Source: Aciduliprofundum boonei T469 (lineage in GTDB: Archaea > Thermoplasmatota > Thermoplasmata > Thermoplasmatales > Aciduliprofundaceae). From it: a stretch of 32,000 nucleotides of DNA. The notes under the pieces are model-generated. The model had not been told where the DNA came from. It worked only from the letters and a program-made list of their open reading frames with translations, and did no database searches. Both the position numbers and the translations under genes were made by a program. Shown piece after piece: positions 5,666 through 23,069 of the stretch. Where the stretch lies: positions 720,001 to 752,000 of the forward strand of contig NC_013926.1 in NCBI RefSeq assembly GCF_000025665.1, given 5' to 3'. Numbering within the stretch: position 1 is the stretch's first letter; every line of letters starts with the position of its first letter.

Positions 5666-6602
5666 GGTTAAGTTGAATTCCTCGAAAAACATGAAAAAAG
5701 AAGAATAAAAATAAGGAAGGATTAGACATAGAGATCATAGGCAAGAACTTTGAAGAGCAGGAGTTTAGAAGCACCAGAGAAAGAATGGGAAAATATGTAA
5801 TCTCCAACAACTCTTTTGAAAGAGTGGAAGACTGATTCAATTACATTTCTATGCGAGTACTTCTTTTTCCAGTCAGGTGATTTGCTCTTTTCTAACAATC
5901 TCCTTCGCAATCCTCTTCTTGCTTTATTACGGATTGCTATGTATGGAGTTCCTCCTTTATTCAGAACAAATCGTATGTTACGTAGAGAATCATAGCCCTT
6001 ATCTGCATACACTTCTTTTACTCTCTCTTCCTCCAAAAGAGGAATGAGGTACGGTGAATCGTTAGTGTGCCATTTTGTAACTATTGCATTGGTAATGAGC
6101 TTCCTCTCAATATCCACAGCAGCATGCAATTTCAATCCTTCTCTTATTTTTCCTACTTCTCCGATTCGCTGTGTGTAGTAGTATGAACGGTAATAAATTT
6201 GAATACCTGTGGAATCCACTGCAAATTTATTGGGTATTCCCATTATTTTCACTATTTCTCTAAGCACAATGCGAATCCATCGTTCTGGTATTCTTCTCAA
6301 CTCTCTTGAAATTGTGCTTTTATGGGGGATTTTCTTCAATCTCATTACCCTCTTTATCTTTCTCATTTCTCGCACAATCTGGAGCATTCTTTCTATGCTT
6401 CCTGCATACTGCACCAGCACTATCAGCATTATGTGCTGGTGCAGAGTGTAGTCCTTCCTAGAATACTTGCTCCAGTAAAGCGGGAGTTTCGCCCTCTTCA
6501 TTGCTCTTAATCCTATCTTCACAATCTTGTATAACTCTAATTTCCTGCTCATCCTTTATTTATCTCTCCTATTTTATTTTTCTGTAGGGTTGCAACTTAC
6601 CC
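5666..6602 (-). mobile_element. IS4/IS5-superfamily insertion sequence (about 937 bp)
   Basis: Imperfect terminal inverted repeats: GGTTAAGTTGAATTCCTCGAAAAAC on the left versus the reverse complement of the right end, GGTAAGTTGCAACCCTACAGAAAAAT. Contains a single DDE transposase ORF and is flanked by 8-bp direct repeats. Confidence 0.75.
5722..6552 (-). CDS. DDE transposase (IS4/IS5 type)
   Basis: 276 aa. DDE candidates are AVDSTG, YADKGYDS and the Y-2-R-3-E-6-K signature in YSHRNVIESVFHSFK. Confidence 0.85.
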   Translation of the reverse strand: MSRKLELYKIVKIGLRAMKRAKLPLYWSKYSRKDYTLHQHIMLIVLVQYAGSIERMLQIVREMRKIKRVMRLKKIPHKSTISRELRRIPERWIRIVLREIVKIMGIPNKFAVDSTGIQIYYRSYYYTQRIGEVGKIREGLKLHAAVDIERKLITNAIVTKWHTNDSPYLIPLLEEERVKEVYADKGYDSLRNIRFVLNKGGTPYIAIRNKARRGLRRRLLEKSKSPDWKKKYSHRNVIESVFHSFKRVVGDYIFSHSFSGASKLLLFKVLAYDLYV

Positions 6603-8865: not shown

Positions 8866-9150
8866 ATGTGCCTCTATTATGTTATTGTGGTTGTGAAAGA
8901 TAAGATTGGAAGAAGAAGGTATATATTGCTTAAAAATGAGCCCAAAATTAGAAAATTGATAAATGAGATTAGAAAAATAGATTCTTGGGCAAAAATCGTG
9001 TATTATGATGATAATTTTGCAATATTAAGATGCAGACATTGGTACAAGGATGATATTTTAGAAATATTGCACAATAATGGAATAAAAACTTACAGAACAT
9101 CTGGAACAATTAAAAAAACAAAAAGAATAATGCAAGGAATCAAACTTTAA
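8866..9150 (+). CDS. RNase P protein component 2 (Pop5/Rnp2), short form
   Basis: GRRRYILLK, AILRCRHWYKDDI and TSGTIKKTKR line up with the RYIAF, IIRC.R and VSGTIKRLKR blocks of archaeal Pop5. The start may be the ATG at 8866 or a nearby GTG. Confidence 0.65.
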   Translation: MCLYYVIVVVKDKIGRRRYILLKNEPKIRKLINEIRKIDSWAKIVYYDDNFAILRCRHWYKDDILEILHNNGIKTYRTSGTIKKTKRIMQGIKL

Positions 9151-9877
9151 TTGCCTTAACAATTTCTGATACAGCAGCTTTTATATCCTCTACCTCTTCA
9201 ACAAGGGTTCCTGTTACAATGATATCTGCACCTGCTTTTACAATATTCCTTGCATCCTCTGCTTTCCTTATTCCTCCACCGACAATTAACGGAATATCAA
9301 TCCAATCTTTAACCACTTTAACCATCTTCGGTGGTACTGGCTCTGGAGCTCCACTTCCTGCTTCTAGATAAACTAGCTGCATACCAAAGTACTGAGCTGC
9401 AAGAGCATATGCAGCAGCCATTTCTGGCTTATCTCTCCTTATCAACTCCGCCTTACCAACTTTTCCCACAGTCATCCCTGGCTCTATGATTATGTAGCCC
9501 ATTGAAATGGGCTCAATTCCAAGTTTCTTTATTATTGGCGCGCCCATCATTTGCTGCCTAATTAAGTATTCAGGGCTATTTGAGTTCAGTAAGCTCATAA
9601 AGTAGATGGCATCTGCGTATTTCGATATAACATGTGCACCGCTTGGGAACAGAATTATTGGAATAGGAACCGCTTCCTTTATCTTTAGAACTGTTTCATC
9701 GACCTTTTCCCTGCTTAGATCTGTGGAACCTCCTATCATTATTGCTCCTGTGCCAGCCTCGTACGCCTCTTTCGCCATTTTCGCTGCTTCTTCCGGACTT
9801 TGCTTTGCAGGGTCTATTAAAGTCATATGCATTTTTCTGGCACGAATCTCATTTATTATGTAATCCATAACTTTCAT
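9140..9877 (-). CDS. Geranylgeranylglyceryl phosphate synthase (PcrB/GGGPS family)
   Basis: 245 aa TIM-barrel pattern: HMTLIDP, IMIGGS, YLEAGSGA, IVGGGIR. GGTGAT lies upstream. The 3' end overlaps Pop5 convergently by 11 nt. Confidence 0.9.
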   Translation of the reverse strand: MKVMDYIINEIRARKMHMTLIDPAKQSPEEAAKMAKEAYEAGTGAIMIGGSTDLSREKVDETVLKIKEAVPIPIILFPSGAHVISKYADAIYFMSLLNSNSPEYLIRQQMMGAPIIKKLGIEPISMGYIIIEPGMTVGKVGKAELIRRDKPEMAAAYALAAQYFGMQLVYLEAGSGAPEPVPPKMVKVVKDWIDIPLIVGGGIRKAEDARNIVKAGADIIVTGTLVEEVEDIKAAVSEIVKAIKV

Positions 9878-9885
9878 TTTATCAC

Positions 9886-10707
9886 CTATGTTAATCCTCC
9901 AATCATGTATGCAATCAAACCTATTATCATTCCAACTTTGGCATATTGCTGTCCTTTCCTTGGATTTTTAAATTGGATTAATGCGGCATATATGAATATT
10001 GCGTCTGAAATTAGAACGGTGGAGAGATAGTAAATACTAAAACCCATACATACATATGGTAAAGGACTAAATGCAACTGCAAGGATGAAAAATATTAGGG
10101 CTATTATACCTGCCTCTGTTCGTCCAACTTTTTTTGGAAGTGTTATACGATTTATATCCCCTTCCATATCCTCAATATCCTTGACTATCTCCCTTCCCAA
10201 ATTTGAAGCAAAGGCCATTAGAGCGAATATGGTTATTCGAAGTATGGCTTCTACGCTAAAAATTGCAGCACCAAATATGAAAATTAGGCCCACAAGGATA
10301 CTTATAGTGGTATTCCCAGAAAGCCCTTTGTTTTTCAAATTTGATTCATAAACATACATGGCTATTTCTGCCGCAATAGCAATTATCAATGTAATAAAGT
10401 TGATGAGAGATGAAAAAATTAGAGCCAATATAAACATAGATATGCCAAAAATTAGAGCATTCTTAGGCTTGATCTTACCAGATGGTATGGGTCTCTCGGG
10501 GTGATTAATCAAATCCACTTCCTTATCATAATAATCGTTTAGAGCGTTTCCCCCTGCAACTGCAAAAAACACAACAAACATTCCAAATATTATATTAAGC
10601 CAGTAATTGCCTATGGTATGACCCTTAACTATTATGGCAACCATAATTATCGCTATGGATGCCATTGCGCAGTTGATGGGACGCATTAATTTAATGTATG
10701 CATTCAC
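9886..10707 (-). CDS. UbiA-family prenyltransferase, digeranylgeranylglyceryl phosphate synthase-like
   Basis: Multi-TM protein with Asp-rich motifs NALNDYYDKEVD and KDIEDMEGD. GTG start with TATTATAA about 25 nt upstream (leaderless-type). Confidence 0.85.
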   Translation of the reverse strand: MNAYIKLMRPINCAMASIAIIMVAIIVKGHTIGNYWLNIIFGMFVVFFAVAGGNALNDYYDKEVDLINHPERPIPSGKIKPKNALIFGISMFILALIFSSLINFITLIIAIAAEIAMYVYESNLKNKGLSGNTTISILVGLIFIFGAAIFSVEAILRITIFALMAFASNLGREIVKDIEDMEGDINRITLPKKVGRTEAGIIALIFFILAVAFSPLPYVCMGFSIYYLSTVLISDAIFIYAALIQFKNPRKGQQYAKVGMIIGLIAYMIGGLT

Positions 10708-10747: not shown

Positions 10748-11809
10748 TCAGTTCAATTTTATCCTTTCAACCTGCAACTTATCCCAAGTTGGATATTCTT
10801 CAACTTCGTATGCATCCCATGGCAGTTCCCCAGCAATATCCTCGAGAATGTAGGGGGAGATTTCAACCCTATTGCGTTGAGAATTTATAGAGATTAAGTT
10901 ATCAGGAATATTGTACCTATCCTTCAAATATTGGTATATTTCTTGTAAATTTTTTCCCTCGATTATCCCTAAAATCAAAGTGGCATCCTCCGTGATTTCC
11001 TCATAATCCTTCTTTATATTCTTTGCTCTTCTCATAAGCCTTCTGCGCATTTGTATTCCATCCTTGAAGGCAGAAGAGCAGTAATGCACTACTATGTCCC
11101 AGTCCATACCAACAACCTCATAGGCAACTTCTTCGCTTCCTTTCACTGCGGAGGAAATATCATTCTTTGGCTCATAACCGCGCATATTTAGCTCCCTATA
11201 ATTTGTTTCAGAGAATTCAAGCTCGTTTAGATTTACAAAAACGCCCATATCGTTTGCAAATTTTACCAACGCAATAAGCTCATCTTTCATATCAGGAAGC
11301 ACGGGTACTTCAATTCCCGTATCCATTCTACTTTCAATTGCCCAATTTAAGCGCTTCTCGTATATGCTTCCCTGCATTTTTGTCCATAATTGAGGAGGTG
11401 GATGAAAGCGAATCTCATCTAAGCCTGCATCTGCCAATTTCTCTATTTTCTCTTTGCTTCCTGAAGCAGTATAAAGGTGTATGTGGTGCTCTTCTCCGAA
11501 ATTATCCTTGAGAAGATGAATATAGTGAATAACTCTATCAACCATCTCCATGGGATCTCCGCCTGTTATTCCTGTTCCCTTCGAATCTATCAATCTTGCC
11601 TCCAAAAGAACATCCTCATCGCTATGCACGGGCATTTCATCTGCAAAAATGACATCCCTATTCATCTTCTCCTTGCTGAGAGGGCAGTAGAAGCACCCGG
11701 CATGGCATATACCCGTTACGAAAAGAACCATCTTTGCCCCTTCTTCACAAAGTTTACAACCTCGTACAACCGGTTTATTCGTAGCAGCACCCAGTGGTAA
11801 GAGAATCAT
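10748..11809 (-). CDS. Radical SAM protein (COG2108-like, function unknown)
   Basis: CHAGCFYCP (Cx3Cx2C) and GITGGDP. The ORF-track start at 11848 is a TTG. I prefer the ATG at 11809, which has TTTTATAT about 25-30 nt upstream. Confidence 0.8.
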   Translation of the reverse strand: MILLPLGAATNKPVVRGCKLCEEGAKMVLFVTGICHAGCFYCPLSKEKMNRDVIFADEMPVHSDEDVLLEARLIDSKGTGITGGDPMEMVDRVIHYIHLLKDNFGEEHHIHLYTASGSKEKIEKLADAGLDEIRFHPPPQLWTKMQGSIYEKRLNWAIESRMDTGIEVPVLPDMKDELIALVKFANDMGVFVNLNELEFSETNYRELNMRGYEPKNDISSAVKGSEEVAYEVVGMDWDIVVHYCSSAFKDGIQMRRRLMRRAKNIKKDYEEITEDATLILGIIEGKNLQEIYQYLKDRYNIPDNLISINSQRNRVEISPYILEDIAGELPWDAYEVEEYPTWDKLQVERIKLN

Positions 11810-11844
11810 AAAAGTAGAGAAAGAAAGTGATATAAAATTGTTTC

Positions 11845-13632
11845 TCAAAAACTGTATGCTGCCACGAAGATAATGAGCAAAAGAGTCAATAGGATGTAGA
11901 GAACATATCTCCTGTCGTTTCCGGGCATTAGGGCTTTCCTGAATCTCTCCGAGGAATACACTGCAAATTTGGATATGGAAAGGTATGAGTTATGAACCAT
12001 GTCTCTCTGTTTCATCTCCTCCGTTCTGAAGAGCCATTTCTGCGTTAGAAGTAGTATGGAAGAATGCCCTCTGGTTGGATACTCCTCGTTCCTAAGACCT
12101 CCGCTCCACGGCTTCACCTTTCTTATTTTCCACTTTGCTCTCATGGCAGCGTAAACTATGCCAAAGTTTATGGCTATGAACAGAGCAATCATCGTAGGAG
12201 ATAGCACACCGAATCCCTTACCGGAGATTATCAGCATCCCATTGGGTATTCCCAATAATTTCCCGAGATATTGCTTAGAGGATATCCCGGTTATCCCCAT
12301 AACCGTCGGAGAAATTATTGAGAAAATATACTGGGGAAAGATACCTGCAAGAAGAAGCACTCCAGCGCCTATTCCAAAGCCGATGTCCCCCAAATTCGCA
12401 TTCTTTCTCTCTCTTCTTTCTACCCCGTGGACTATGAACTTGCTCATGGCGATTATGCTTATCCCCGCAGTTAGAGCAACCAGTGCCCCGATAACCACGG
12501 TCACAAGGCGAACCAGTATGTCGGATATGTAGAAAGATTGGAACATGGATTCAAGGGCTGCCCACTCTCCGATGAACCCTGGCAACGGCGGGACGCCCGC
12601 GAGGGAAATGGCAGCTAAGTACCCTGCAAGGGCTGTCCATCTTGTAAGCGAATATTTATTTCCCAAATATTCTCCCCCACTCTTTTCCAGATGCCCGGCA
12701 ACAGCAAATAAAAGAGATTTCGCGATTGTGTGCGCAAACGCAAAGAACAATAGGGCGAGAAGGATGAATCCTCCGATGACCTGTTGAACTTCGTACGTTA
12801 CTATTAAAGCTCCGGTCATAGCTATTAGGACTCCATCATTCTCAACTGTGCTGTACGCTGGCAATTTCTTAACATGGTCACAAACAGCGGCGTAGAAAGC
12901 ACCGATTATTGCCGTTATGCCACCCATTATCAAAATCACGAGGCCAACCCATGATGCAGGGATTCCGAATTGTAAGAACGAAATCATGCCGAAGAGTCCC
13001 ATGAGAGTCATAACCGCACTGAGCTGCGAGGACATGTTTGCAGGGGCCTTTGAGTGTGCTTCCGGAAGCCATATATGGAAGGGCACCACGGCCATCTTAA
13101 TCATGAATCCCAAGGCAAGGAGAAGGTAAATTAGGCTCCAATTACCCAAGGCATGCCACGCGGAGAATATTATGCTTCCAGATTCCGCGGATGCCCAAGC
13201 GAAGCCGGTGAGTATCAAAAGAGTGCTCAGTTCTCCAAACGCGAGAAACATGTAGGCAGCTCTCTTTGAATCCTTATGTAAATATATGCTCACGAACGAT
13301 GCGATGGTCATTCCTTCCCATCCGATTAGGAAAGAAAGGGCATTGGTTGATGTGAGAATTATAGTCATTGCTCCCGTGGTGAACGCAAAGGTGCTGGCCA
13401 GCAACCCGCTCTTTTTATCGTAGCCTACAGAGTAGAGGGATAGAAATAGCCAAGCAATGGAGGAGAGAATTATGAAATAACCGCTTATTTCATTTCCAAT
13501 TTCACCCAAGAAAGAGAAGTACAACAGCAGCGATGAGCCGATGGCAGTAAGAAGGTAAGATGTCATTTTAAATTTAAATCCGAGGAGTCCAGCGAGCAGA
13601 TAAACTGAGAGAACAATCAAAATGGGATTCAT
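11845..13632 (-). CDS. Antiporter-like membrane subunit (NuoL/HycC/HyfB-like) of the hydrogenase-related complex
   Basis: Polytopic protein with the WLPEAHSKAPANMSS..SAVM block of the proton-conducting transporter family. ATGA overlap with the upstream gene's stop (ATG at 13632). Confidence 0.85.
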   Translation of the reverse strand: MNPILIVLSVYLLAGLLGFKFKMTSYLLTAIGSSLLLYFSFLGEIGNEISGYFIILSSIAWLFLSLYSVGYDKKSGLLASTFAFTTGAMTIILTSTNALSFLIGWEGMTIASFVSIYLHKDSKRAAYMFLAFGELSTLLILTGFAWASAESGSIIFSAWHALGNWSLIYLLLALGFMIKMAVVPFHIWLPEAHSKAPANMSSQLSAVMTLMGLFGMISFLQFGIPASWVGLVILIMGGITAIIGAFYAAVCDHVKKLPAYSTVENDGVLIAMTGALIVTYEVQQVIGGFILLALLFFAFAHTIAKSLLFAVAGHLEKSGGEYLGNKYSLTRWTALAGYLAAISLAGVPPLPGFIGEWAALESMFQSFYISDILVRLVTVVIGALVALTAGISIIAMSKFIVHGVERRERKNANLGDIGFGIGAGVLLLAGIFPQYIFSIISPTVMGITGISSKQYLGKLLGIPNGMLIISGKGFGVLSPTMIALFIAINFGIVYAAMRAKWKIRKVKPWSGGLRNEEYPTRGHSSILLLTQKWLFRTEEMKQRDMVHNSYLSISKFAVYSSERFRKALMPGNDRRYVLYILLTLLLIIFVAAYSF

Positions 13633-14168
13633 GGGTTCCACCTCCCTGTGAGCATCAGGAGAGCTTTAAGTATCGCAATAGGTTGCGGGGGACAGCCGGA
13701 GACGCGGGCATCCACTTTTATTATTTTCTCTATTTTCTCGTTGGCACAGGCTCCAGCGGTCACAACTATTTTTGGTTTGGGCATTTGCTCATACGCCTCT
13801 TTAAGCACTGGAATCATCTTCTCCGTGGGCTCGCCTATCACGAGGAGGATGTCCGCATGCCTTGGCACGGGCGTGAAGAAGAAGCCGAGGCGATTCATAT
13901 CGTACTGTGGAGCACCTAGCAATGAGATTTCCCTATTACATGAGCTGCAAGAGCCAACATCTAAAACGAATATGTGCACCGATTTATTGAACGGTATTTT
14001 CCTACGCACTTCTATTTCATCATCCCTTTCTTCGCATCCATTCATGCACGAGTTGAAGCAGGAAAATCCGCAATCTTTGTCATAGAGTGATTTCGGTATG
14101 GATTTATCCTCCTCTTTTGGGAATTTCGTTGTTATTGTGCCTCTTTTTAGGCCTTTTGCAAGCCACAT
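13629..14168 (-). CDS. NuoB/HycG-like small subunit with a HycF-like N-terminal stub
   Basis: The four cluster ligands are kept: VGSCSSC, GACA, GCPPQP, plus PRHADILLV. The N-terminus KGLKRGTITTKFPKEE resembles the HycF N-terminus. TGATG coupling occurs at 14168 (alternative GTG at 14177). Confidence 0.85.
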   Translation of the reverse strand: MWLAKGLKRGTITTKFPKEEDKSIPKSLYDKDCGFSCFNSCMNGCEERDDEIEVRRKIPFNKSVHIFVLDVGSCSSCNREISLLGAPQYDMNRLGFFFTPVPRHADILLVIGEPTEKMIPVLKEAYEQMPKPKIVVTAGACANEKIEKIIKVDARVSGCPPQPIAILKALLMLTGRWNP

Positions 14169-15406
14169 CACCCCCACCTCCCGAAAATGTCCGCGTCTGA
14201 GAAATACGCACCGAAGCTGTCCAGAGCGAAGGGGAAATCGGTGAACACATTGCCCCGAATTCCCACGGAGAAAGCGTGATACATCACCAGAGAGGGCGGA
14301 CGTATGATTATTTCTCTCACCCTCCCTTTTTCAATTTTCACACCCATGTAAATGTCTCCGGGGGGCGCTTCCGCCATACCCTCGTAGAAACCATCCTTCT
14401 TCGCGTTTCTCTTAACTTTGCATTCTTTCAGCTCTATACTCTCAAGTATTTCAAAACTCTTTTCCACCTCTTTCACTCGTATCAAAAATCTTGAAAGCGA
14501 GTCGCCGTAGCTCTCCATGGGCGGAGAATAATCCCCATATAGATCTTTGAAAATTCCAATTTTTCTCGCATCTCTCAGAACCCCGCTGGCCCTCGCCGGA
14601 ATACCAACCCCATCGTTCCTTAAAATATCCAGCTTTTTAAGAATGCATGTGGTCTGAAGTCTATCGATGAATATTCTCGAATCGGATAATTCTTCCGCTG
14701 TCTCTAAGAACCATTTTTTCAGCTCGCTTAAATTTTCATGGAATTTATCGTATTTCCTCGGACCGGTACGCAGGAAGTTCATGCCGTAGCGATGGCCCAG
14801 AGTTTTAAGATTGAGGCGCAAAAACTCTTCTGTTATGGCAGCGAGATGCATGTTTGCCACCTTCTGCGACGCATCCCCCGCGAGCTTGTGCATAACCCAG
14901 ATGTGATTGTGCACCCTCTCCAACTCTTTCGCAAATAGTAAATAATCGGGGCAATCAATTCCAAACACCAGCCCGTAGAATAGCGAGGCGTAGGAAATTG
15001 AAAACTGCCCGGTTATTCTCTCCACGTAAGGCAAAGCTTCCCATGGCTCCTTTCCGATGGCTTTATTTAACATTTCTCTCTTTTTGAATCCCAGATATGG
15101 AACGAGGGAATCTATTCTCTCACCGCAGGTTGCTATTTTGAACGCTCCCGCCTCTCCAAGTCCACCAGCGGCTGGGCCATAAGTAAGCACCTTTCCGCAA
15201 TCCTTCGCTTCTATCTCATAATTATTCATGAAAGCCCTCGCGAGCGGTCTTCTTTCGTAGAATCCCTCTGGTATATTTTCCCACAAAGTGTGCTTTATCT
15301 CTCCGTTTTCGTAGTTTGTCCAGATGAAGCGATAACCATTATTTTCAGGGAGTATGGCAGTCAGCGCGTCATTGATTTTCATGGGGTCTTTGAACTCCTC
15401 GCTCAT
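14168..15406 (-). CDS. NuoD/HycE-like large subunit lacking the NiFe-binding cysteines
   Basis: YGPAAGGLGEAGAFKI..GERI...LGFKKREMLNK..ERITGQFSISYAS aligns to the GP.HaG..EPGHF...GE.I..LGY.HRG.EK...ER.CG.C...H blocks. The C-terminus is DSFGAYFSD instead of DPCxxCxDR. The start was reset to the ATG at 15406 (ATGA overlap); the ORF-track N-terminus overlaps the upstream gene. Confidence 0.85.
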   Translation of the reverse strand: MSEEFKDPMKINDALTAILPENNGYRFIWTNYENGEIKHTLWENIPEGFYERRPLARAFMNNYEIEAKDCGKVLTYGPAAGGLGEAGAFKIATCGERIDSLVPYLGFKKREMLNKAIGKEPWEALPYVERITGQFSISYASLFYGLVFGIDCPDYLLFAKELERVHNHIWVMHKLAGDASQKVANMHLAAITEEFLRLNLKTLGHRYGMNFLRTGPRKYDKFHENLSELKKWFLETAEELSDSRIFIDRLQTTCILKKLDILRNDGVGIPARASGVLRDARKIGIFKDLYGDYSPPMESYGDSLSRFLIRVKEVEKSFEILESIELKECKVKRNAKKDGFYEGMAEAPPGDIYMGVKIEKGRVREIIIRPPSLVMYHAFSVGIRGNVFTDFPFALDSFGAYFSDADIFGRWG

Positions 15407-16749
15407 AGGTTCCACCCCCAGAAGTAAATAATGAGGATTAGAAATAGAGATGCAATTGAGATTCCGAACGGAACCATTGACTCGGATAATTTTATCCTCC
15501 CCTCTTCGCCGTCGGAGAATAGCATTGATACTACGTGATAATTGAGCGCTAGAAAAGAGAGCAGAACTCCGGAAATCAGGAAGAAGAACAGCCATGGATG
15601 AGCGATAAGCGCGATGAAAATTCCAAACTCTCCGAAAAACATTGCAAATGGCGGGGCTCCTGTGACTGTCAGTGCGGATACCAGAATTGCGAAACTGAGT
15701 GTCTTTGAAGTTTCAATTAGATTTCTTATCTCACTTATTTCCTCTTTTCCGTGCCTCTTGAGCGTGCCTGCCGAGAGGAACAGCGCGGATTTACCGAACG
15801 CATGAGCGAGGAATACAACGAGTACAAAGTAAATGGCGCTGGGATAGAAATAGGTCAGCGATATTCCAACGGTGGCTATTCCCATAACATCCATACTGGA
15901 ATAGGCGAATAATCTCTTCGTTCTTTTCTGAGAGATCATAAGCAAAGATGCGACCCAGATCGTGAGAATTCCCAAAATCGCCGTGAGGTAGAATAGAGGA
16001 AGAGAATGCATGACCCCGTAAATCCTGTAAAAAACAATAAGTGATGAGGGTAAAAGGGCTCCGGATAGAAGGGCGCTCACGGGGGAAGGTGCAGTACCAT
16101 GGGCATCGGGGAGCCATGTGTGCATGGGAAACAGCCCCGCTTTGGTTCCAAACCCGATGAGAGCGAGGGAGCCAACTAAAAGCGCACCTTTTGAAATCGT
16201 TGCGTTTACCCATGTGAACCCTCCCGTGATTCCTCCGTAGAGAATTATTGAAAATAGCCCAATTGCAAGGCCTGATGAGGCGATGAGGACATAGCGCCAT
16301 GCGCTCTCAACATGGCTCTTTTCCTTCTCCATGAGAATGAGAGCTGCACTAATCACGGTGGATGCTTCCAGCCACAGCCACGCATAGCCCAATGAGGGTG
16401 TGCTTACTGCCAATAACATAGTGAGAGTAAAACCGGCCAGCAGAGACCAGCCGTAGTTGGGCGAGATGAAGAATCTTTTTATGTTTCGCATGCAAACATT
16501 GGCATGGAGGGCGGCGAAGAGGTAAATCATGGTGATGATGAGAAACATAACCTTCGTTACAAAGTCCACATACAGCCAAGAATTGTGGAAATCTGGCTGG
16601 ATGAGAAGATAGAGGGACAGAATGAAAGCCACAGAAGAAGCAAGGATATTGCTCAGTGTGGCCAAGGTGTTATTCTTAATCAGCGAAATAAGAGAGGCCC
16701 CGAGAACGGCGACAAATATTCCATATATTGCAATTTCCTGCATTTTCAT
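15403..16749 (-). CDS. Antiporter-like membrane subunit (NuoN/NuoM/HyfF-like)
   Basis: GTKAGLFPMHTWLPDAHGTAPSPVSALLSG block and about 14 predicted TM helices. Stop-start coupling at both ends. Confidence 0.8.
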   Translation of the reverse strand: MKMQEIAIYGIFVAVLGASLISLIKNNTLATLSNILASSVAFILSLYLLIQPDFHNSWLYVDFVTKVMFLIITMIYLFAALHANVCMRNIKRFFISPNYGWSLLAGFTLTMLLAVSTPSLGYAWLWLEASTVISAALILMEKEKSHVESAWRYVLIASSGLAIGLFSIILYGGITGGFTWVNATISKGALLVGSLALIGFGTKAGLFPMHTWLPDAHGTAPSPVSALLSGALLPSSLIVFYRIYGVMHSLPLFYLTAILGILTIWVASLLMISQKRTKRLFAYSSMDVMGIATVGISLTYFYPSAIYFVLVVFLAHAFGKSALFLSAGTLKRHGKEEISEIRNLIETSKTLSFAILVSALTVTGAPPFAMFFGEFGIFIALIAHPWLFFFLISGVLLSFLALNYHVVSMLFSDGEEGRIKLSESMVPFGISIASLFLILIIYFWGWNL

Positions 16750-17375
16750 CACCCCGCAAGCTCCTCAATTTCCATGGGTCCGTACTCTTTCTCCGCGCTG
16801 AGAATTACCGCGAGAAGAACTGCGCCAATCACATCTAACAAAATTCCAACTTCCAGCAAAAACCCGATGGGGTAAAAGACGATTCCTAAGTAAAGTAAAG
16901 CGTTCTCTTCCACAATGTACCCCGAAATTTGGGCCAGTGCGTTTCTCCGCATAACAATTATCAAAAGACCGAAGAGAAGCAGAATGAATGGGATCATGCC
17001 CTTCCATGTGCCTATGACATTGTAAATGACGAGGTACGCTATGATTCCAACTATCGCGGTTATTATTCCCGCAATCAGAGAGGACTTTGCCTTGGCTCCG
17101 AACTCTCTGTGCTCCCACACTCTCTCCTTTTTTATATCTTTTAGAAGAATATTGGGAATTAGCCATGCCCTGAAAATCAGCGTGAATATTGCTAGAGCTA
17201 TAAGCTCCCACATTCTAAGGTAGAACCCAACTATTCCTATGAGAAGCGATAGAATTATGGTCTGCGCCTGAAGATGCCTTATAACGCTGTGAATATAATT
17301 CTCCGCAATTATTACAAATCCGTAGAGGAGAATGAGAACTCCTAAAAAATCTATTGTGGCCTCGTATGCTATCAT
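16749..17375 (-). CDS. HyfE-like (NuoK-related) small membrane subunit
   Basis: 208 aa, entirely hydrophobic helices. Size and position match hydrogenase-4 component E. ATGA overlap with the upstream gene. Confidence 0.65.
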   Translation of the reverse strand: MIAYEATIDFLGVLILLYGFVIIAENYIHSVIRHLQAQTIILSLLIGIVGFYLRMWELIALAIFTLIFRAWLIPNILLKDIKKERVWEHREFGAKAKSSLIAGIITAIVGIIAYLVIYNVIGTWKGMIPFILLLFGLLIIVMRRNALAQISGYIVEENALLYLGIVFYPIGFLLEVGILLDVIGAVLLAVILSAEKEYGPMEIEELAG

Positions 17376-18331
17376 TGGGGCACACCTCCCACCAGGAAGA
17401 AAGATATCACAGCTAAGAGCGCGGTGAGGTACGAGAAGGTGAGATAATCAATAATTTTGAACAGGCGAATCTTCGCCACGGAAATTTCCACCAAAACGAT
17501 GGCAAATATCACAACGAGCATTTTCACAAAGAGCAAAGCAATACCGTACAGGATAGTAAGAGCATTAACCTGAAGGGGTATGAACCACGGCATTGCAAAT
17601 ACATTTATGAACACGGAGAAGAGGATGAACTGCTTCATGTATGAGCCCCACGATTTTAACGCGTATAGCGGCCCAGAATATTCCAAACCCATTCCCTGCC
17701 CGATCATTCCCAATTCTCCCATTCCGTGACTCTCTATGGGCAATTTTCCGGTATCGAAGAGAAGAAGAAGGAAGAACGCAGTAATGAGAAGAATATGCGT
17801 GGGGGAGAGCATCCACGATAGATTATTCCTCAACGTTTCATTTGTCAGGAAAGGATTGTTCGTTCCCGTGATTAGTGCGACTCCAAAGAAAACGGTGATA
17901 AGGACAGGTTCGGCGAAGGCGCCGAATGTAACTCCTCTTGTGGCACCTATGCCCGTGTAATACGAGCCAGTTTTTTCAGTTCCAATCACAGAGAAGAAAG
18001 ATGCGAATCCAAATAAGAACGCCCCGCCAAGGAAATCCACCAGCGGTGCGAACCACGAGGGAGAGCCGAACACTATGGGCACAACCCATGGTAGAATCAG
18101 GTATGCGGTGAATGAGAGCATGGGCGCCAAGATAAAAAGAGAACCCGCATCTTCTGGCACAACTATCTCCTTCTTGAAGGACTTGGCAAGGTCGTAGTAC
18201 GGCTGGAAAATGGATATACCCTTTCTGGATTCAAATTTAGCTTCCCATTTCTTCAATATACCTACCATTAACGGCGAAAGGGCTAACACGGTCAATACCT
18301 GCACTAAACCTGCTACTATCTCAGGGATCAT
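17372..18331 (-). CDS. NuoH/HycD-like membrane subunit
   Basis: The N-terminus ...LSPLMVGILKKWEAKFESRKGISIFQPYYDLAKSFKKE matches the HycD/NuoH signature (k.kA..Q.R.GP...QPy.Dl.Kl..K). GAGGTGA lies 6 nt upstream of the ATG. Confidence 0.85.
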   Translation of the reverse strand: MIPEIVAGLVQVLTVLALSPLMVGILKKWEAKFESRKGISIFQPYYDLAKSFKKEIVVPEDAGSLFILAPMLSFTAYLILPWVVPIVFGSPSWFAPLVDFLGGAFLFGFASFFSVIGTEKTGSYYTGIGATRGVTFGAFAEPVLITVFFGVALITGTNNPFLTNETLRNNLSWMLSPTHILLITAFFLLLLFDTGKLPIESHGMGELGMIGQGMGLEYSGPLYALKSWGSYMKQFILFSVFINVFAMPWFIPLQVNALTILYGIALLFVKMLVVIFAIVLVEISVAKIRLFKIIDYLTFSYLTALLAVISFFLVGGVPQ

Positions 18332-18410
18332 ATGGCGTCACCTCATGCGAAAAGGCGTCATCAGCCACGCGGGCGTTTCGGGGTGGACGCCATCACCCGA
18401 AGCAGAGGTG
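18332..18410 (-). promoter_or_regulatory. GC-rich structured 5' leader of the hydrogenase-related operon
   Basis: Minus strand: cTTCGGGTGatggcgtcCACCCCGAAacgcccgcgtggctgatgacgccttttcgcatGAGGTGAcgccatATG. An 8-bp hairpin (plus-strand 18376-18402) sits next to a repeated TGACGCC motif, in an otherwise AT-rich spacer. Confidence 0.3.
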
Positions 18411-18776
18411 AATTTTGAGTTTAATATTTAATGCTTTCCATTACCCACAGTGTTCAGGGGTGAGGGTAATCGGTGCTTTATTTTTTTATATTTCTCATCT
18501 ACCTCACAAATTTATTGGATAAAGACCCCTCAGCACCACTGTGAGATGTAATCATATAATGCCTTTGGGACTCTCTTTCTAAACTCACCCATTTAGAATT
18601 CTTTTAGGATAAAACACTTTTCTCAAGAACCACCAGCGAGTTCCTAAAAGTCCCTTTAGAAAAGGTGCCATAGCTCTGCTAAAGCAGTGCGTGTTCGCAT
18701 CTCGCGATGCTCATTTACCCCCAAACATAGTAGTTTTTACCTCCTGCAACCTAAGAATGAATTTCTTTCGAGATGA

Positions 18777-18830
18777 AGCCCCTTTTAATTCTTTGGGGGT
18801 AAAGCACCTTTCTTCCCAAGAAAGGGGCTT
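18777..18830 (-). other. Long hairpin directly 3' of tRNA-Pro
   Basis: AAGCCCCTTT ... AAAGGGGCTT form a perfect 10-bp stem enclosing about 34 nt. It starts 2 nt after the tRNA discriminator base. Confidence 0.35.
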
Positions 18831-18832
18831 AG

Positions 18833-18958
18833 TGGGGCCGCCGAGATTTGAACTCGAGTCTCCGGCTTTTCCGGTTGGGGCAAGGAAGGGTTTTGAAAGG
18901 GGAACTTTGGTGCCCCTTCACCCGAAGCCGGAAGGATGCCAAGCTACCCCACGGCCCC
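18833..18958 (-). tRNA. tRNA-Pro (anticodon CGG) interrupted by a 53-nt intron at position 37/38
   Basis: Exons: GGGGCCGTGGGGTAGCTTGGCATCCTTCCGGCTTCGGG / AGCCGGAGACTCGAGTTCAAATCTCGGCGGCCCCA. They give a 7-bp acceptor stem, anticodon stem CCGGC/GCCGG and T-loop TTCAAAT. The 5' part is the typical archaeal tRNA-Pro sequence. Confidence 0.85.
18868..18920 (-). other. tRNA-Pro intron (bulge-helix-bulge substrate)
   Basis: Hand fold: the central 4-bp helix pairs U32-U33-C34-G35 with intron CGGA. It is flanked by 3-nt bulges GG^U and AA^A, each carrying a splice site. Confidence 0.75.
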
Positions 18959-19019: not shown

Positions 19020-22000
19020 TTATTCCTCAAGATCTTCTTCTGAGGATCCTTCCTCTGTTTCTTCGGAATTCTCTTCTTTTTCCATTTCTTTTTCTCTGAC
19101 TTCCCTTGGTTTTTTACCCTTTTTCACCATTGCTACTGCTATCACTATAATTATGATTATTATCACTAGTATAGAAAGCCCAATGACGAGGCTAGTCATG
19201 CCACCTGCTTCTTTGATTTGGAAGGTTATTTTGGCTGTGTTCGAATTGCCGGCTTTATCTACTGCTTTGATGATTACGGTGTGTTGCCCCACGCTTAAGC
19301 CTGTGAAGTTGTAAGATGTCTGTGTTTCAACTTTTGTCCAGCTTCCGTTATCTATCTTTATCTCGTAGTATGCGATTCCGAGGTTGTCGCTACCGCTCCA
19401 AGATACTACCACATAGTTATTCGTTGTATTGTAGTTCTCCGTTGGAGAAGTGATCTCTATTGTAGGCGCCTGTGTATCTACTGTTATTGCTATGGATTTC
19501 TCCTTGGAATTTCCCGCTTCATCTACTGCTTTGACATAAATGGTATGCTGTCCATCCTGGAGATTTAAATTATATGATGTGGAATTTCCAACATTCTTCC
19601 ATGCTCCATTATCCACTTTTATTTCATAGTATGCAATTGCAAAGTTATCGCTGCCGCTCCATTTTACTGTGATAGAAGAGCTGTTTGTTATCATGTTATT
19701 CTCTGGAGCAGTTATATTTAATGTTGGAGCTTTTGTATCTACTTTGAAGCTAAAGGATGTTTGATTGTAATTTCCAGCTTTGTCATATACTCTCAAGACA
19801 ACATTATGCAAACCGTTGCTTAGATTTGTAAATGTGTATTCGTTCACATTGCCTATGTTATTCCAGTTGCTGCCATCTAATTGAATTTCAGAGTAATTCA
19901 CAGCTACATTATCACTTGCAATCCATTTTAGTGTAATAGTATTTGTGTTTATCCAAGAGCCACTTTGAATACTCATATTCCACTGCACTGTTGGAGGTAT
20001 AGTATCTATTGAGAAGTTCAAATATACTGTTCTCCTGTTTCCTGCAGCATCCATGCCCAAAAGGGTTACTTCATGTTTTCCGCTTTTCAACCCTTGGGCT
20101 AAGTACTGTGTATTGCTTCCAACAGGCATTGGAAGATTGTTATCGATAGTGATCATAAATATAACCTTGCTTTCATCGCTATATGTCCATTTTATCAATA
20201 CATTTGATGTGTTAACATAAGAATTCTCCTTTGGAGATATGAAGTGTATCTGTGGTGGAGTTGTATCAACCTCAAACGATACCTGTGCGATTGCGGAGTT
20301 ATTGGAGAAATCAAATGCTTCTACATACACTGTATGCTGTCCATCTTTAACATTGTTGAATGTGTATTTGGTTGCATTGCCGACATTTATCCAGCTTCCA
20401 TCATCTAGCTTCACCTGATAATGGGATATGCCGATGTTATCTGTACCGTTCCAGTAAACCGTTATTGAAGAGGTTGCCAATATTTTTCCGTTTGTGGGTG
20501 AGCTTATTGACACTTTAGGAGGCACGGCATCCCAAGCTTTCATGAGTGGATAATAATCTTTTGCAGAGCCTCCGGGTATTACATAAGGAGTATCTCCGAA
20601 TCCATCATGGTTTGCATCGGTACCGTTGTAATCGCTCCAGTAATTACCTCCAACTGGCGGCGCTAAAGACCATGTGTTGTTCTCATTGTCATATGCTTGA
20701 TATTTGTTATTTATGAAATTATTGTGATATATCGTGTTATTATAAGAACTGCTAACCCTCAGGCCGTATCTATTGTTTGAGAAAGTATTGTTGTTTATGA
20801 CACTATTCTTAACACTGTACATCACTATTCCGAATATGTTGTTTGTGAAATAGCTGCCAAATACCTTTATGGAATTGGAATACCTTATGGTAACTCCCCA
20901 GTAAGAGCTATTCACCATGCTGTAGAGAACTTCTACATTGGATGAACGCTCTATGAATAACTCGCCCACGCCATCTATGGTCACATTATTTAGAGTTACA
21001 TTTGTTGAGTAAAATACTCCAATATACCCTGCGTCTACATTTGCTAGTGTATATCCATCCTTGTTATTGATGTAGTAAAGCGGTTTACCACCAACTGTAT
21101 TGTTTGAATATATGGTTTGATTGTAATAGAGAGCTTTTGGATATGAGGACACATATACTGGATGTGTGTTGTTAAAGAATTGGTTTGATGCAAGGGTATT
21201 GTGATAAGAAGCGTAGAAGAATACACCATAGTAATTGTCGTAGATTTTGTTCTTCATTATATATCCATTTTGTACATTATGAAGCCCTATACCATAGCCA
21301 CTTGAAGTATTATGTAAGTAACATTTTTCAATTATGAAGTAGGCGGTTGTATTGGTAATGCTTATTGCATAAGAACTACCATTGGCATCTATGTCCCACC
21401 AACCTATGATGTATGGATTATCTTTAGTGCCATTGCCTCCTATGACACCGTTGCTTGCAGTGAAATCTGAATTCGAGTTAATTTTTATTGTATGGAATGG
21501 TTGTATTGGCCTAAGATATGCTCTGACAATTGCATCATGCGAAGAGTCCTGTAAAGCAGGGACATCGGGAGAGTTATCGGATACCTGATATGGTTTTCCG
21601 GGTATGTACTTGTTGGGGTAATATTCGATGTGGAATGAGGTAATTATCATCTTCTTGCTCCATTTGTGTGCATAAAGGAAGAATTCATTAGAGGAGTTAT
21701 AACTGAAGTTGCCCATAAAGTCAGTCAAATCCACTGCTAAGAATGTTGGGAATGGATGGTCTCCTCCGTTATAAGAGGTCGGCGAGATGTTTCCAAATAT
21801 TGAGCGTTTTATCTGAATTGGATGAGAAGGTGAACCAATACCAAGGTCTATTGGAGTGATTCTCGTACCTGGATGATTTGGATCAACATTCCATGTGGCT
21901 AATAATTTTGGCTGGTAGTTATGTCTAGGTGTCATATAATAAGCATCAGGCCAACCCTGACCCATGGCTAGTATTTTGTACATTGCTTTATATGTTATCC

Positions 22001-23018
22001 AGTAGTAACCTCCTACACCCCAGCCGGTTCCCCAGGAGTTAACTATCTTGAAAGCTCCTTGATCTCCATTATCCTTTATAGTATCATTCCAGCCAACTAT
22101 TGTTTGGGCATGATTGGGAGAACCGCTTGCATCATACTCACTGTACGAAATTATGTAATTTCCTCCGTTATTGAAGATATTGTCATATTCATCTGCATCT
22201 ATTGCAAAATTAACTGTGTAGCCTTCAGCAAGTACAGCTTTTATGGCATTGGTTAAGTTATCAACTTGCTGTTGTGTTGGAGCGTTGTTTGTTCCTACAG
22301 TAGTGTTTATTATGGCACTCACATTTAGTACATATCCATCCTGTATCCTATATAATGGGGCTTCTCTCCAAGCAGCTTCATCTCCCCAAGAGACAGCATC
22401 ATGGTCGTTGTAGGGCATTGTGTACATTGTAGCTCCTCCCAAACGATATAGAACTAACATATTTGCTATGAAACTTGAACCTTGATCAGAGCCACCATTC
22501 ACTTTGTTGTAAGTCCATGCAGGACTCATAAGATGATGCTTGTTGTAGCCATAGTGGGCATCTGTCCAGTTATGTGTGTATGCCTGGAGCCAACCCTCGC
22601 TGTAATATGTTACAGCCCAAGCTGCACAAGAACCCTGGGCACCCTGATTGCCTACTTTAGGAAATCTCGGATCCTTTGATAAATCTAGAGTTGAGGGAAA
22701 TCCTCTTGGAGCATATACAGAATTTACTACCATTAACTTTCCAACAGAGTTTTCTATGGTGTGCCTAGAGGGTGTTTTGAAACCGGTATAATATCCTCCA
22801 GCTTTCAAATTACCCGTTTGTATATCCTTTATATGTTCCATCATGAACTTTGCGTCACCTTGATTGAAATAATGGATGTCGTAAGCAATAGGTTCATCTA
22901 CAGGTTTGAATAAATGTTGGGTATTGCTATGATGTGCCTGTGCAAGAGCTGGTATCACTGAAAAGCCACTGAACAACAATACACTTATCACTATTATAAC
23001 TATCAACGCCTTTTTCAT
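19020..23018 (-). CDS. Large membrane-anchored surface protein: signal peptide, papain-like (C1) cysteine peptidase, beta-sandwich linker, NosD-like right-handed beta-helix, five Ig-like repeats, TM, charged tail
   Basis: C1 catalytic set Q..GSCAAWA, NHAQTIVGW and NSWGTGWGVGGYYWI. Beta-helix repeats (NNTFSNNRYGLRVSSSYNNTIYHNNFINN) end in GGNYWSDYNGTDANHDGFGDTPYVIPGG..DYYPL. The TM is LVIGLSILVIIIIIIVIAVAMV. The ORF-track start at 23045 is a TTG. The ATG at 23018 (MKKALIV...) has GGGTG and AATATTAATAAA upstream. Confidence 0.9.
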   Translation of the reverse strand: MKKALIVIIVISVLLFSGFSVIPALAQAHHSNTQHLFKPVDEPIAYDIHYFNQGDAKFMMEHIKDIQTGNLKAGGYYTGFKTPSRHTIENSVGKLMVVNSVYAPRGFPSTLDLSKDPRFPKVGNQGAQGSCAAWAVTYYSEGWLQAYTHNWTDAHYGYNKHHLMSPAWTYNKVNGGSDQGSSFIANMLVLYRLGGATMYTMPYNDHDAVSWGDEAAWREAPLYRIQDGYVLNVSAIINTTVGTNNAPTQQQVDNLTNAIKAVLAEGYTVNFAIDADEYDNIFNNGGNYIISYSEYDASGSPNHAQTIVGWNDTIKDNGDQGAFKIVNSWGTGWGVGGYYWITYKAMYKILAMGQGWPDAYYMTPRHNYQPKLLATWNVDPNHPGTRITPIDLGIGSPSHPIQIKRSIFGNISPTSYNGGDHPFPTFLAVDLTDFMGNFSYNSSNEFFLYAHKWSKKMIITSFHIEYYPNKYIPGKPYQVSDNSPDVPALQDSSHDAIVRAYLRPIQPFHTIKINSNSDFTASNGVIGGNGTKDNPYIIGWWDIDANGSSYAISITNTTAYFIIEKCYLHNTSSGYGIGLHNVQNGYIMKNKIYDNYYGVFFYASYHNTLASNQFFNNTHPVYVSSYPKALYYNQTIYSNNTVGGKPLYYINNKDGYTLANVDAGYIGVFYSTNVTLNNVTIDGVGELFIERSSNVEVLYSMVNSSYWGVTIRYSNSIKVFGSYFTNNIFGIVMYSVKNSVINNNTFSNNRYGLRVSSSYNNTIYHNNFINNKYQAYDNENNTWSLAPPVGGNYWSDYNGTDANHDGFGDTPYVIPGGSAKDYYPLMKAWDAVPPKVSISSPTNGKILATSSITVYWNGTDNIGISHYQVKLDDGSWINVGNATKYTFNNVKDGQHTVYVEAFDFSNNSAIAQVSFEVDTTPPQIHFISPKENSYVNTSNVLIKWTYSDESKVIFMITIDNNLPMPVGSNTQYLAQGLKSGKHEVTLLGMDAAGNRRTVYLNFSIDTIPPTVQWNMSIQSGSWINTNTITLKWIASDNVAVNYSEIQLDGSNWNNIGNVNEYTFTNLSNGLHNVVLRVYDKAGNYNQTSFSFKVDTKAPTLNITAPENNMITNSSSITVKWSGSDNFAIAYYEIKVDNGAWKNVGNSTSYNLNLQDGQHTIYVKAVDEAGNSKEKSIAITVDTQAPTIEITSPTENYNTTNNYVVVSWSGSDNLGIAYYEIKIDNGSWTKVETQTSYNFTGLSVGQHTVIIKAVDKAGNSNTAKITFQIKEAGGMTSLVIGLSILVIIIIIIVIAVAMVKKGKKPREVREKEMEKEENSEETEEGSSEEDLEE
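19212..20531 (-). repeat. Five tandem Ig-like modules of about 87-89 aa (coding repeats)
   Basis: Each unit follows (T/A).PP.(V/I)...SP.N......(I/V).(V/L).W.(G/A)SDN..(I/V).(Y/H)Y.(I/V)K.D.G.W..VGN.T.Y.F..L.DG.HT(V/I).V.A.D.AGN. Boundaries are good to about +/-3 nt. Confidence 0.75.
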
Positions 23019-23069
23019 TTTATGCACCCGGGCGGAGTATATCAATCTTTATTAATATTTTTTTCGTCT

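Follow-up and report, generated by a model that had tools for sequence, protein, structure and literature searches.

A six-gene Ehr-like operon without NiFe ligands lies behind a fluoride riboswitch in archaeal DNA

To our knowledge, the complexes called energy-converting hydrogenase-related (Ehr), which occur widely among bacteria and archaea, have lacked a known function since they received their name in 2005. The original prediction for the DNA studied here had said as much, and papers from 2019, 2020 and 2023 still describe the function as unknown or never investigated (PMC10284858, PMC6349859, PMC7894505). Genes labelled 'formate hydrogen lyase' have been noted 3' of the crcB-motif RNA, the fluoride riboswitch, since 2010 (PMC2864571) and are among the commonest fluoride-riboswitch genes (PMC11139923; PMC2864571); a 2024 review reads this linkage as a shift to fermentation (PMC11139923). 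We analysed a 32,000-nt stretch of archaeal DNA (NC_013926.1, positions 720,001 to 752,000; the window in what follows), whose minus strand carries six co-oriented hydrogenase- and complex-I-like genes at positions 18331-11845. We propose, with a probability of roughly 55 %, that this locus is a fluoride-inducible operon for an Ehr-type ion-translocating complex, and not for a hydrogenase or a formate hydrogenlyase (FHL).

As in the riboswitch-linked class, a crcB-motif RNA directly precedes the operon. By its label, that class would produce H2 from formate and mark a shift to fermentation, whereas the members examined here have no NiFe site and some have no iron-sulfur (FeS) cluster. Because every member examined is without the NiFe site, the label probably results from Ehr complexes being mis-annotated. 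Earlier publications already cover both the Ehr class and the occurrence of 'formate hydrogen lyase' genes with the riboswitch; what is new is the proposed identity of the two. A literature search, with Baker et al. 2012 (Science) outside its reach, returned no paper linking Ehr or hydrogenase-like complexes to fluoride riboswitches, and it returned none noting the absence of the NiFe site in the riboswitch-linked class.

Gene content and the lost NiFe site

The six genes are, in 5' to 3' order:

17372..18331, minus strand: gene 1 (H), NuoH/HyfC/HycD-like membrane subunit (EhrB-like), 319 aa; PF00146, E 2.3e-31
16749..17375, minus strand: gene 2 (E), HyfE-like membrane subunit (EhrC-like), 208 aa; NF008556 'hydrogenase 4 membrane subunit', E 5e-14, under cutoff
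15403..16752 (alternative start 16749), minus strand: gene 3 (F), HyfF/NuoN-type antiporter-like subunit (EhrD-like), 448/449 aa; PF00361, E 3.7e-38
14168..15406, minus strand: gene 4 (L), large subunit (EhrL; NuoD/HycE/MbhL fold), NiFe ligands absent, 412 aa; PF00346
13629..14168, minus strand: gene 5 (S), small subunit (EhrS; NuoB/MbhJ-like), 179 aa; PF01058
11845..13632, minus strand: gene 6 (B), HyfB/HycC/NuoL-type antiporter-like subunit (EhrA-like), 595 aa; PF00361; NF005046, 736.9 bits against a cutoff of 460

Stop and start codons overlap at every junction (ATGA at H/E, F/L and S/B, GTGATG at E/F, TGATG at L/S), in agreement with the original prediction, and profile searches bore out all six of its family assignments, that of the HyfE-like subunit with a match under the cutoff. 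The longest open reading frames (ORFs) of genes 5 and 6 have 182 aa (GTG start at 14177) and 598 aa. The claim that the window holds no NuoEFG homologue and no hyp gene held for all the ORFs scanned. The parallel claim about NuoC and NuoI stood for separate genes, none of which was found among these ORFs, but not in full: the small subunit has an N-terminal four-cysteine stretch, and the large subunit probably carries some 70 residues of a vestigial NuoC-like domain.

For comparison we used 34 related loci, many from metagenome-assembled genomes (MAGs); they are not phylogenetically independent, and about 12 lineages were counted. Proteins of A. boonei T469 and of MAGs of the DHVE2 lineage match the large subunit at 94-95% identity, and the A. 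boonei locus (L001) is syntenic. The order H-E-F-L-S-B was found wherever contigs cover the genes (L001-L025, L028-L030), with an extra small gene between L and S in L027, L033 and L034; the exceptions are the Streptomyces and Actinoallomurus loci, with S-B-H-E-F-L. For the HyfE-like subunit there was no Pfam match, and a sequence search of PDB gave no relative; its gene is kept in place in all loci whose contigs extend over the site.

On each defining feature that was tested, the predicted complex falls into the Ehr class, as had been proposed from the subunit set and the missing NiFe ligands: L and S are homologous to the group 4 [NiFe]-hydrogenase subunits and to NuoD/NuoB, L has no NiFe cysteines, and NuoL-, NuoH-, HyfE- and NuoN/HyfF-type membrane subunits lie in one cluster. 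We take the gene order of the Geobacter Ehr cluster to be ehrABCDLS; in Ehr naming the order here is B-C-D-L-S-A, and the operon is under the predicted control of a fluoride riboswitch. The same six kinds of subunit are described for EhrA-D, L and S of Geobacter sulfurreducens (GSU0739-45; PMC7894505; PMC10284858), a likeness of subunit kinds and not of orthology.

In L, RITGQF (15002-15019) and DSFGAYFSD (14195-14221) occupy the places of the N- and C-terminal NiFe motifs. These coordinates had been given exactly, together with the conclusion that all four NiFe cysteines are replaced and that the protein is no hydrogenase, which our alignments sustain. HMMER placed RMCGICSFSH of Pyrococcus furiosus MbhL (6cfw_L) opposite RITGQFSISY; the alignment stops at MbhL residue 372, one residue short of PCxxC. 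The NiFe cysteines of MbhL are C68, C71, C374 and C377 (PMC9585477), and from the alignment and this numbering their equivalents in L are T132, F135, Y401 and D404. None of the five cysteines of L stands at a NiFe ligand position, and the ligands are likewise absent in 24 aligned relatives. Among the 120 homologues listed, a C-terminal DPCxxC occurred in none and an RxCGxC-like string in two. We rejected a shifted alignment, as no relative with intact NiFe motifs was present among these 120. The alignments present the relatives as one coherent NiFe-less clade, with the motifs ER-I-[TC]-G-x-F-S and NVFTDFPFALDSFGxxF[AS]DAD at the old active site. With the NiFe cysteines replaced, H2 chemistry is excluded, and the complex cannot make or oxidise H2. 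Compared with the group 4 [NiFe]-hydrogenases (Ech/Mbh/Hyc/Hyf), the locus lacks the four L1/L2 cysteines and has the proximal [4Fe-4S] ligands.

The complex is most similar in its membrane parts to E. coli FHL-1 (Hyc) and FHL-2 (Hyf). HycD (7z0s_D, E 8.7e-30) and HycC (7z0s_C, E 2.6e-26) are the nearest solved relatives of H and B, and HyfE- and HyfF-like subunits are present. An AlphaFold (AF2) model of L (pLDDT 88.7, pTM 0.90) has a fold closest to HycE (TMq 0.82), followed by E. coli NuoCD (0.78-0.81) and stand-alone NuoD (~0.70). The better fit to HycE and NuoCD than to stand-alone NuoD suggests that the first ~70 residues of L are probably the vestigial NuoC-like domain mentioned above, to which the NuoC-like domain of HycE would have been cut. 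Unlike the FHL complexes, the locus has no NiFe ligands, no HycB/HycF/HyfA/HyfH ferredoxin subunit, no FdhF and no nearby hyp genes. Formate dehydrogenase H and HycB/HycF (HyfA/HyfH) were found neither in the window nor as a recurring conserved neighbour in the 34 loci. With these features missing, the complex cannot be a formate hydrogenlyase.

The P. furiosus membrane-bound hydrogenase (MBH) and its relative MBS/Mbx are also close: in the PDB, MbhL, MbhJ and MbhM ranked first or second among the sequence matches for L, S and H, and the proton-relay glutamate E21 of MbhL is conserved as the invariant E85. With MBS/Mbx there is already a complex that descends from a hydrogenase and whose catalytic site has changed. 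In contrast to both, there is no Mrp-type Na+ module (MbhA-G), the subunits number six instead of 13-14, and the four cysteines are gone.

Alignment of S to MbhJ (6cfw_J) confirmed that the small subunit retains its four [4Fe-4S] ligands in GSCSSC, GAC and GCPP (C74, C77, C141 and C159). The four NuoB cluster cysteines are kept in all archaeal and actinobacterial members, over 36-95% identity. The N-terminal cysteines of S form a CX3CX3CX3C stretch (C33/C37/C41/C45). In many relatives the same region is ferredoxin-like (CP...CxxCxxC) with weak Fer4 matches; some actinobacteria encode it as a small gene of its own or within a longer fusion (L027 has a separate Fer4-like gene), and it is absent from L006, L016 and L019. 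We also noted a deletion of 12 residues in S, relative to MbhJ and NuoB, in the loop from the GAC to the GCPP ligand (around residues 142-153 of S). This loop lines the quinone cavity in complex I, and the relatives L012-L015 retain part of it.

The loss of the catalytic cysteines, together with this deletion next to the cluster, might be taken to mean that the operon is a decaying, non-functional relic of a hydrogenase operon. However, all six ORFs are intact, the ratio of non-synonymous to synonymous substitution rates (dN/dS) was 0.03-0.12 over the five subunits compared (H, E, F, L and S) against two relatives, and it was 0.08-0.09 for L. The low values, which include the cysteine-less L, indicate that the operon is functional and not decaying. 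With the gene order conserved from archaea to Spirochaetes and with invariant residues in its proteins, the relic reading is hardly credible and was rejected as effectively refuted.

The fluoride riboswitch and its spread

The leader of the operon contains three further features:

18345..18406, minus strand: fluoride riboswitch aptamer (crcB motif, RF01734), Rfam 45.0 bits against a gathering score of 34, E 1.6e-9, model positions 1-64 of 64
18420..18431, minus strand: putative TATA-like archaeal promoter element, TTAAATATTAAA, read from the sequence, ~25-30 nt upstream of stem P1
18329..18344, minus strand: expression platform GAGGUGACGCCAUAUG, with a Shine-Dalgarno (SD) sequence, a copy of the aptamer GACGCC strand and the start codon

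The aptamer, whose end is 13 nt ahead of the ATG of gene 1, lies just beyond the coordinates of the original prediction, which missed it. A comparable A/T-rich box stands at equal distance in L003, L009, L014, L016 and L019. The distance of ~25-30 nt between the TATA-like box and P1 would put the aptamer at the very 5' end of the mRNA, if transcription starts ~25-30 nt downstream of the box.

The unliganded minimum-free-energy fold pairs AUGGCGUC-CACC of the aptamer with GGUGACGCCAU and so covers the SD sequence. Helices that sequester the SD sequence or the start codon also form in the Archaeoglobaceae, Spirochaete, L028 and L030 loci, and each lineage examined has its own. Over 17 distinct homologous sequences, 96% of the cells in P1, P2 and the pseudoknot were paired, in an alignment fitted to a model that contains P1 and P2 but not the pseudoknot. 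Double changes occurred in eight of the 14 pairs, a count reached by none of 500 shuffles, and slid controls were 35-65% paired. By the usual logic of such elements, the riboswitch is predicted to act as a translational ON switch. Without fluoride, the P1 3' strand and loop (AUGGCGUCCACC) would pair with GGUGACGCCAU and hide the SD sequence; with fluoride bound, P1 and the pseudoknot would lock, the ribosome-binding site would be freed and the six translationally coupled genes would be expressed. Since the archaeal loci have a short U-tract 3' of the aptamer, the switch may have a transcriptional component as well.

The riboswitch precedes the operon in 18 of the 25 assessable loci, in about 12 lineages and both domains. 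These lineages comprise two DHVE2 paralogues, another Thermoplasmata archaeon, Archaeoglobaceae, other archaeal MAGs, Spirochaetes, two unassigned metagenome contigs and one actinobacterium of the Solirubrobacteraceae. Matches to RF01734 of at least the gathering score lie directly upstream of H in L001-L003, L006, L011, L013, L016, L019, L021-L023, L028 and L030, and ~370 nt upstream of H in L033. A custom covariance model from ten loci, whose seeds match by construction, found the non-seed sites of L009, L014 and L015 at 54-56 bits, and these are visible by eye too; the other non-seed sites are those of L028, L005, L013 and the near-identical L001 and L002. Among operons with no riboswitch directly upstream, L027 adjoins crcB-DUF190-crcB, another DUF190 gene and two MutS_V genes, L031 adjoins MutS_V pairs, and L034 shows a DUF190 protein as well as two more fluoride riboswitches within 2 kb. 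Because riboswitches or fluoride genes recur at related operons, the fluoride link is a property of the family and not an accident of the window.

This conservation bears on another explanation, namely that the complex serves respiration as an ordinary energy-conserving oxidoreductase (ferredoxin to quinone or polysulfide; MBS/Mbx- or Fpo-like) for which the fluoride link is incidental or a fine-tuning of expression. A. boonei is reported to be a sulfur- and iron-reducing peptide fermenter, and FeS ligands and proton-pumping residues are kept. Moreover, the literature mentions P. furiosus Mbx as a relative of hydrogenases that performs a redox function (PMC6349859). However, the riboswitch is kept at the operon in about 12 lineages of very different physiology, and a housekeeping enzyme would not stay OFF without fluoride. 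In addition, there are FeS-free members, and neither an Mrp module nor an MBS-type subunit set is present. We regard a purely respiratory function as quite improbable. With the riboswitch, the module is better read as serving fluoride stress than as housekeeping machinery for energy coupling. Of the original view of the locus as an uncharacterised energy-coupling machine, the Ehr module stands; the predicted control by fluoride had been overlooked, and FeS-free relatives weaken the notion of a necessarily redox-driven machine.

Several details of individual loci were recorded beside these results. In the Acidimicrobiales loci, the MutS_V genes stand in tandem beside the Ehr-like operons (positions 1-4625 of L027, with its crcB-DUF190-crcB and further DUF190 gene, and 12409-15464 of L031), and L031 has two divergent Ehr-like operons back to back. 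The additional riboswitches of L034 (12482-12542, plus strand; 14135-14199, minus strand) flank the 3' side of the operon; one of them precedes a HEAT-repeat gene, and the DUF190-domain protein is encoded upstream. L005, from a DHVE2 MAG, has a second fluoride riboswitch just downstream of the Ehr operon (3937-3996, minus strand; 35.6 bits). It faces two small coiled-coil ORFs of 107 and 138 aa, with a duplicated pair upstream and no Pfam match, which are candidates for new fluoride-responsive genes. L002 and L010 belong to one MAG, and DHVE2 genomes appear to have two paralogous Ehr operons, with L ~52% identical; L009, the DHVE2 paralogue with an available 5' end, has a fluoride riboswitch too, with a CCUAAUGA core variant.

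Proposed role and energy source of the complex

We hypothesize that the mRNA, opening with the riboswitch, yields a six-subunit membrane assembly of the complex-I/FHL kind, made up of the HycD-like, HyfE-like, two antiporter-like, NiFe-free large and NuoB-like small subunits. Its role would be the translocation of ions, most likely protons or cations, aiding the cell under fluoride stress. Entry of hydrogen fluoride (HF) acidifies the cytoplasm and drains the proton-motive force (PMC11139923), and the complex could counter both effects, which would be acute for an acidophile. In this archaeon the energy would probably come from electron transfer through the [4Fe-4S] cluster or clusters of the small subunit, with ferredoxin as a likely donor.

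Ion-translocation residues, read from MAFFT alignment columns, are conserved in the membrane arm. In the HyfF-like subunit, the Glu of transmembrane helix (TM) 5, the Lys of TM7, the His/Lys of TM11 and the Glu of TM12 are invariant wherever the aligned region is present, FeS-free variants included. The HyfB-like subunit has the TM7 Lys, which E. coli HycC does not have. The invariance of the HyfF-like residues in the FeS-free variants also speaks for a redox-independent secondary transporter, that is, an Mrp-like cation/proton antiporter on a hydrogenase chassis, fluoride-induced and expelling protons in exchange for Na+ or K+, in which L and S would do no more than cap the complex, structurally or in regulation, and FeS clusters, if any, would be structural. 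Na+/H+ antiporters are the second commonest fluoride-riboswitch gene class (PMC11139923), five Spirochaete-type loci are FeS-free with all six genes, and no conserved redox partner gene lies beside the operon. On the other side, we detected two PF00361 subunits and no other Mrp subunit (MrpB, C, E, F, G), and the strong purifying selection on L exceeds the needs of a passive cap. Furthermore, the archaeal and actinobacterial members keep the four NuoB cysteines, and many add a ferredoxin-like motif or, in L027, the separate Fer4-like gene, which argues for electron transfer. We consider the antiporter a live possibility, though on balance an unlikely one. For the complex in the window, a redox-driven pump is somewhat more likely than a pure secondary antiporter, since the cluster ligands are conserved throughout the archaeal clade.

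Some of our results weigh against a fluoride-inducible, redox-driven Ehr complex. A riboswitch directly upstream is missing in seven assessable loci (L018, L020, L026, L027, L031, L032 and L034). The window, when scanned for crcB and CLC-F, contained no fluoride exporter gene. All-against-all clustering of the flanking ORFs of the window and 30 loci showed only the six genes to be conserved, with neither electron-input or -output genes nor an exporter among the conserved neighbours, and no lineage encodes an electron donor or acceptor module beside the operon. The N-terminal cysteine stretch of S in the window has atypical spacing and no Fer4 match. Spirochaete-type members (L021-L023, L025, L029) have lost all four NuoB cluster cysteines while the operon is whole, the contigs of L025 and L029 ending short of the operon start; L021-L023 carry riboswitches, and those of L022 and L023 have the two top scores (63 and 62.5 bits). 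These FeS-free members suggest that the core function of the family may need no redox chemistry. Finally, we infer fluoride binding, induction and transport alike from sequence.

The quinone pocket, which the original prediction had asked to be inspected, weighs in the same direction. The core folds of NuoB, D, H, L and N occur in complex I (NDH-1) and in the locus alike, as do the conserved Lys and Glu residues of the antiporter-like subunits. In contrast to complex I, only these B, D, H, L and N homologues of the full NuoA-N set are present (NuoA, J, K, I, E, F and G are missing), the 12-residue PSST loop is deleted, and in HMMER alignments the quinone-site His of the beta1-beta2 loop and the quinone-site Tyr are replaced by G84 and G133 of L. 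Judged by these columns, the large subunit would not be a quinone site. The parts that are conserved and selected are the membrane arm, the L/S/H junction and the fluoride control; the NiFe site has been lost throughout, and one clade can do without FeS clusters. Fluoride becomes a concrete candidate inducer, with fluoride or acid tolerance as a testable phenotype, for orphan relatives of complex I, and the possibility arises that the coupling machinery of complex I has been reused beyond redox-driven pumping.

A direct role of the complex in fluoride export is a further, unlikely reading. The complex would then be a fluoride (F- or HF) exporter whose former NiFe/quinone cavity, with its conserved Phe, Ser and Asp, binds fluoride, driven by proton flow through the antiporter-like subunits or by redox energy, like complex I reversed on a new substrate. 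The tight riboswitch control and the lack of an exporter gene beside the operon in most loci are consistent with this, as is the strong conservation of RITGQFSISY and NVFTDFPFALDSFGxxFxDAD, in which archaeal and bacterial members, the FeS-free ones among them, share D390 and F398 without exception. However, the idea is wholly inferential: the complex resembles neither Fluc nor CLC-F, a protein architecture of this kind has no known anion path, and the L027 operon adjoins crcB genes, so that it does not replace crcB there. We regard an exporter as distinctly unlikely. A broader proposal would make the Ehr family a hydrogenase/complex-I chassis turned into a fluoride-defence machine with a redox-free core, either a proton-motive-force-driven F-/HF pump using the NiFe/quinone cavity or a fluoride-induced, high-stoichiometry proton/cation transporter. 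This is tentative and rather improbable; if true, thousands of 'formate hydrogen lyase' and 'NADH dehydrogenase' annotations at fluoride riboswitches would be wrong.

Flanking genes

The 3' neighbour of the operon overlaps the stop codon of gene 6:

10748..11848, minus strand: radical SAM / DUF8061 gene, PF04055 + PF26257

This gene follows the operon only in the DHVE2 loci L001 and L003, and other lineages are without it; it may be co-transcribed with the operon, in this lineage only, and is probably not part of the complex. Further 3' lie genes for a DGGGP synthase (UbiA; 9886-10707, minus strand) and a GGGP synthase (PcrB; 9140-9877, minus strand), an arrangement with the radical SAM/DUF8061 gene that is confined to DHVE2 loci. 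The radical SAM/DUF8061 protein may be a lipid-modifying enzyme. Other neighbours of the operon (RIO kinase, KH, SpoU, Usp, Amphi-Trp and radical SAM) occur in single lineages only; the universal stress protein (Usp) gene stands 3' of the operon in L012, L013 and L024.

The GC content of the six Ehr genes is 43-47%, against ~35-41% in the greater part of the flanks; the difference could stem from amino-acid composition or from an earlier horizontal transfer. A DDE_Tnp_1 transposase gene (5722-6552, minus strand; E 8.6e-23) is missing from the syntenic position in L001 (A. boonei T469) and is likely an insertion sequence that entered between the UbiD and L21e genes.

Upstream of the operon, a tRNA-like gene (18830-18958, minus strand) has acceptor, D and T arms (GGGGCCGUGGGGUAGC...CUCGAGUUCAAAUCUCGGCGGCCCCA) and is interrupted by a ~60-nt insertion, probably an intron. 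For this gene ARAGORN gave no match, and Rfam gave only a sub-threshold match to the tmRNA clan (23 bits). We rejected a tmRNA, as this score comes from the tRNA-like ends alone. Directly upstream of the tRNA-like gene, positions 19020-23045 (minus strand) encode a protein of 1341 aa, secreted or S-layer-like, which combines papain-like Peptidase_C1 and NosD/beta-helix domains with numerous Ig-like ones and has a membrane anchor at its C-terminus.

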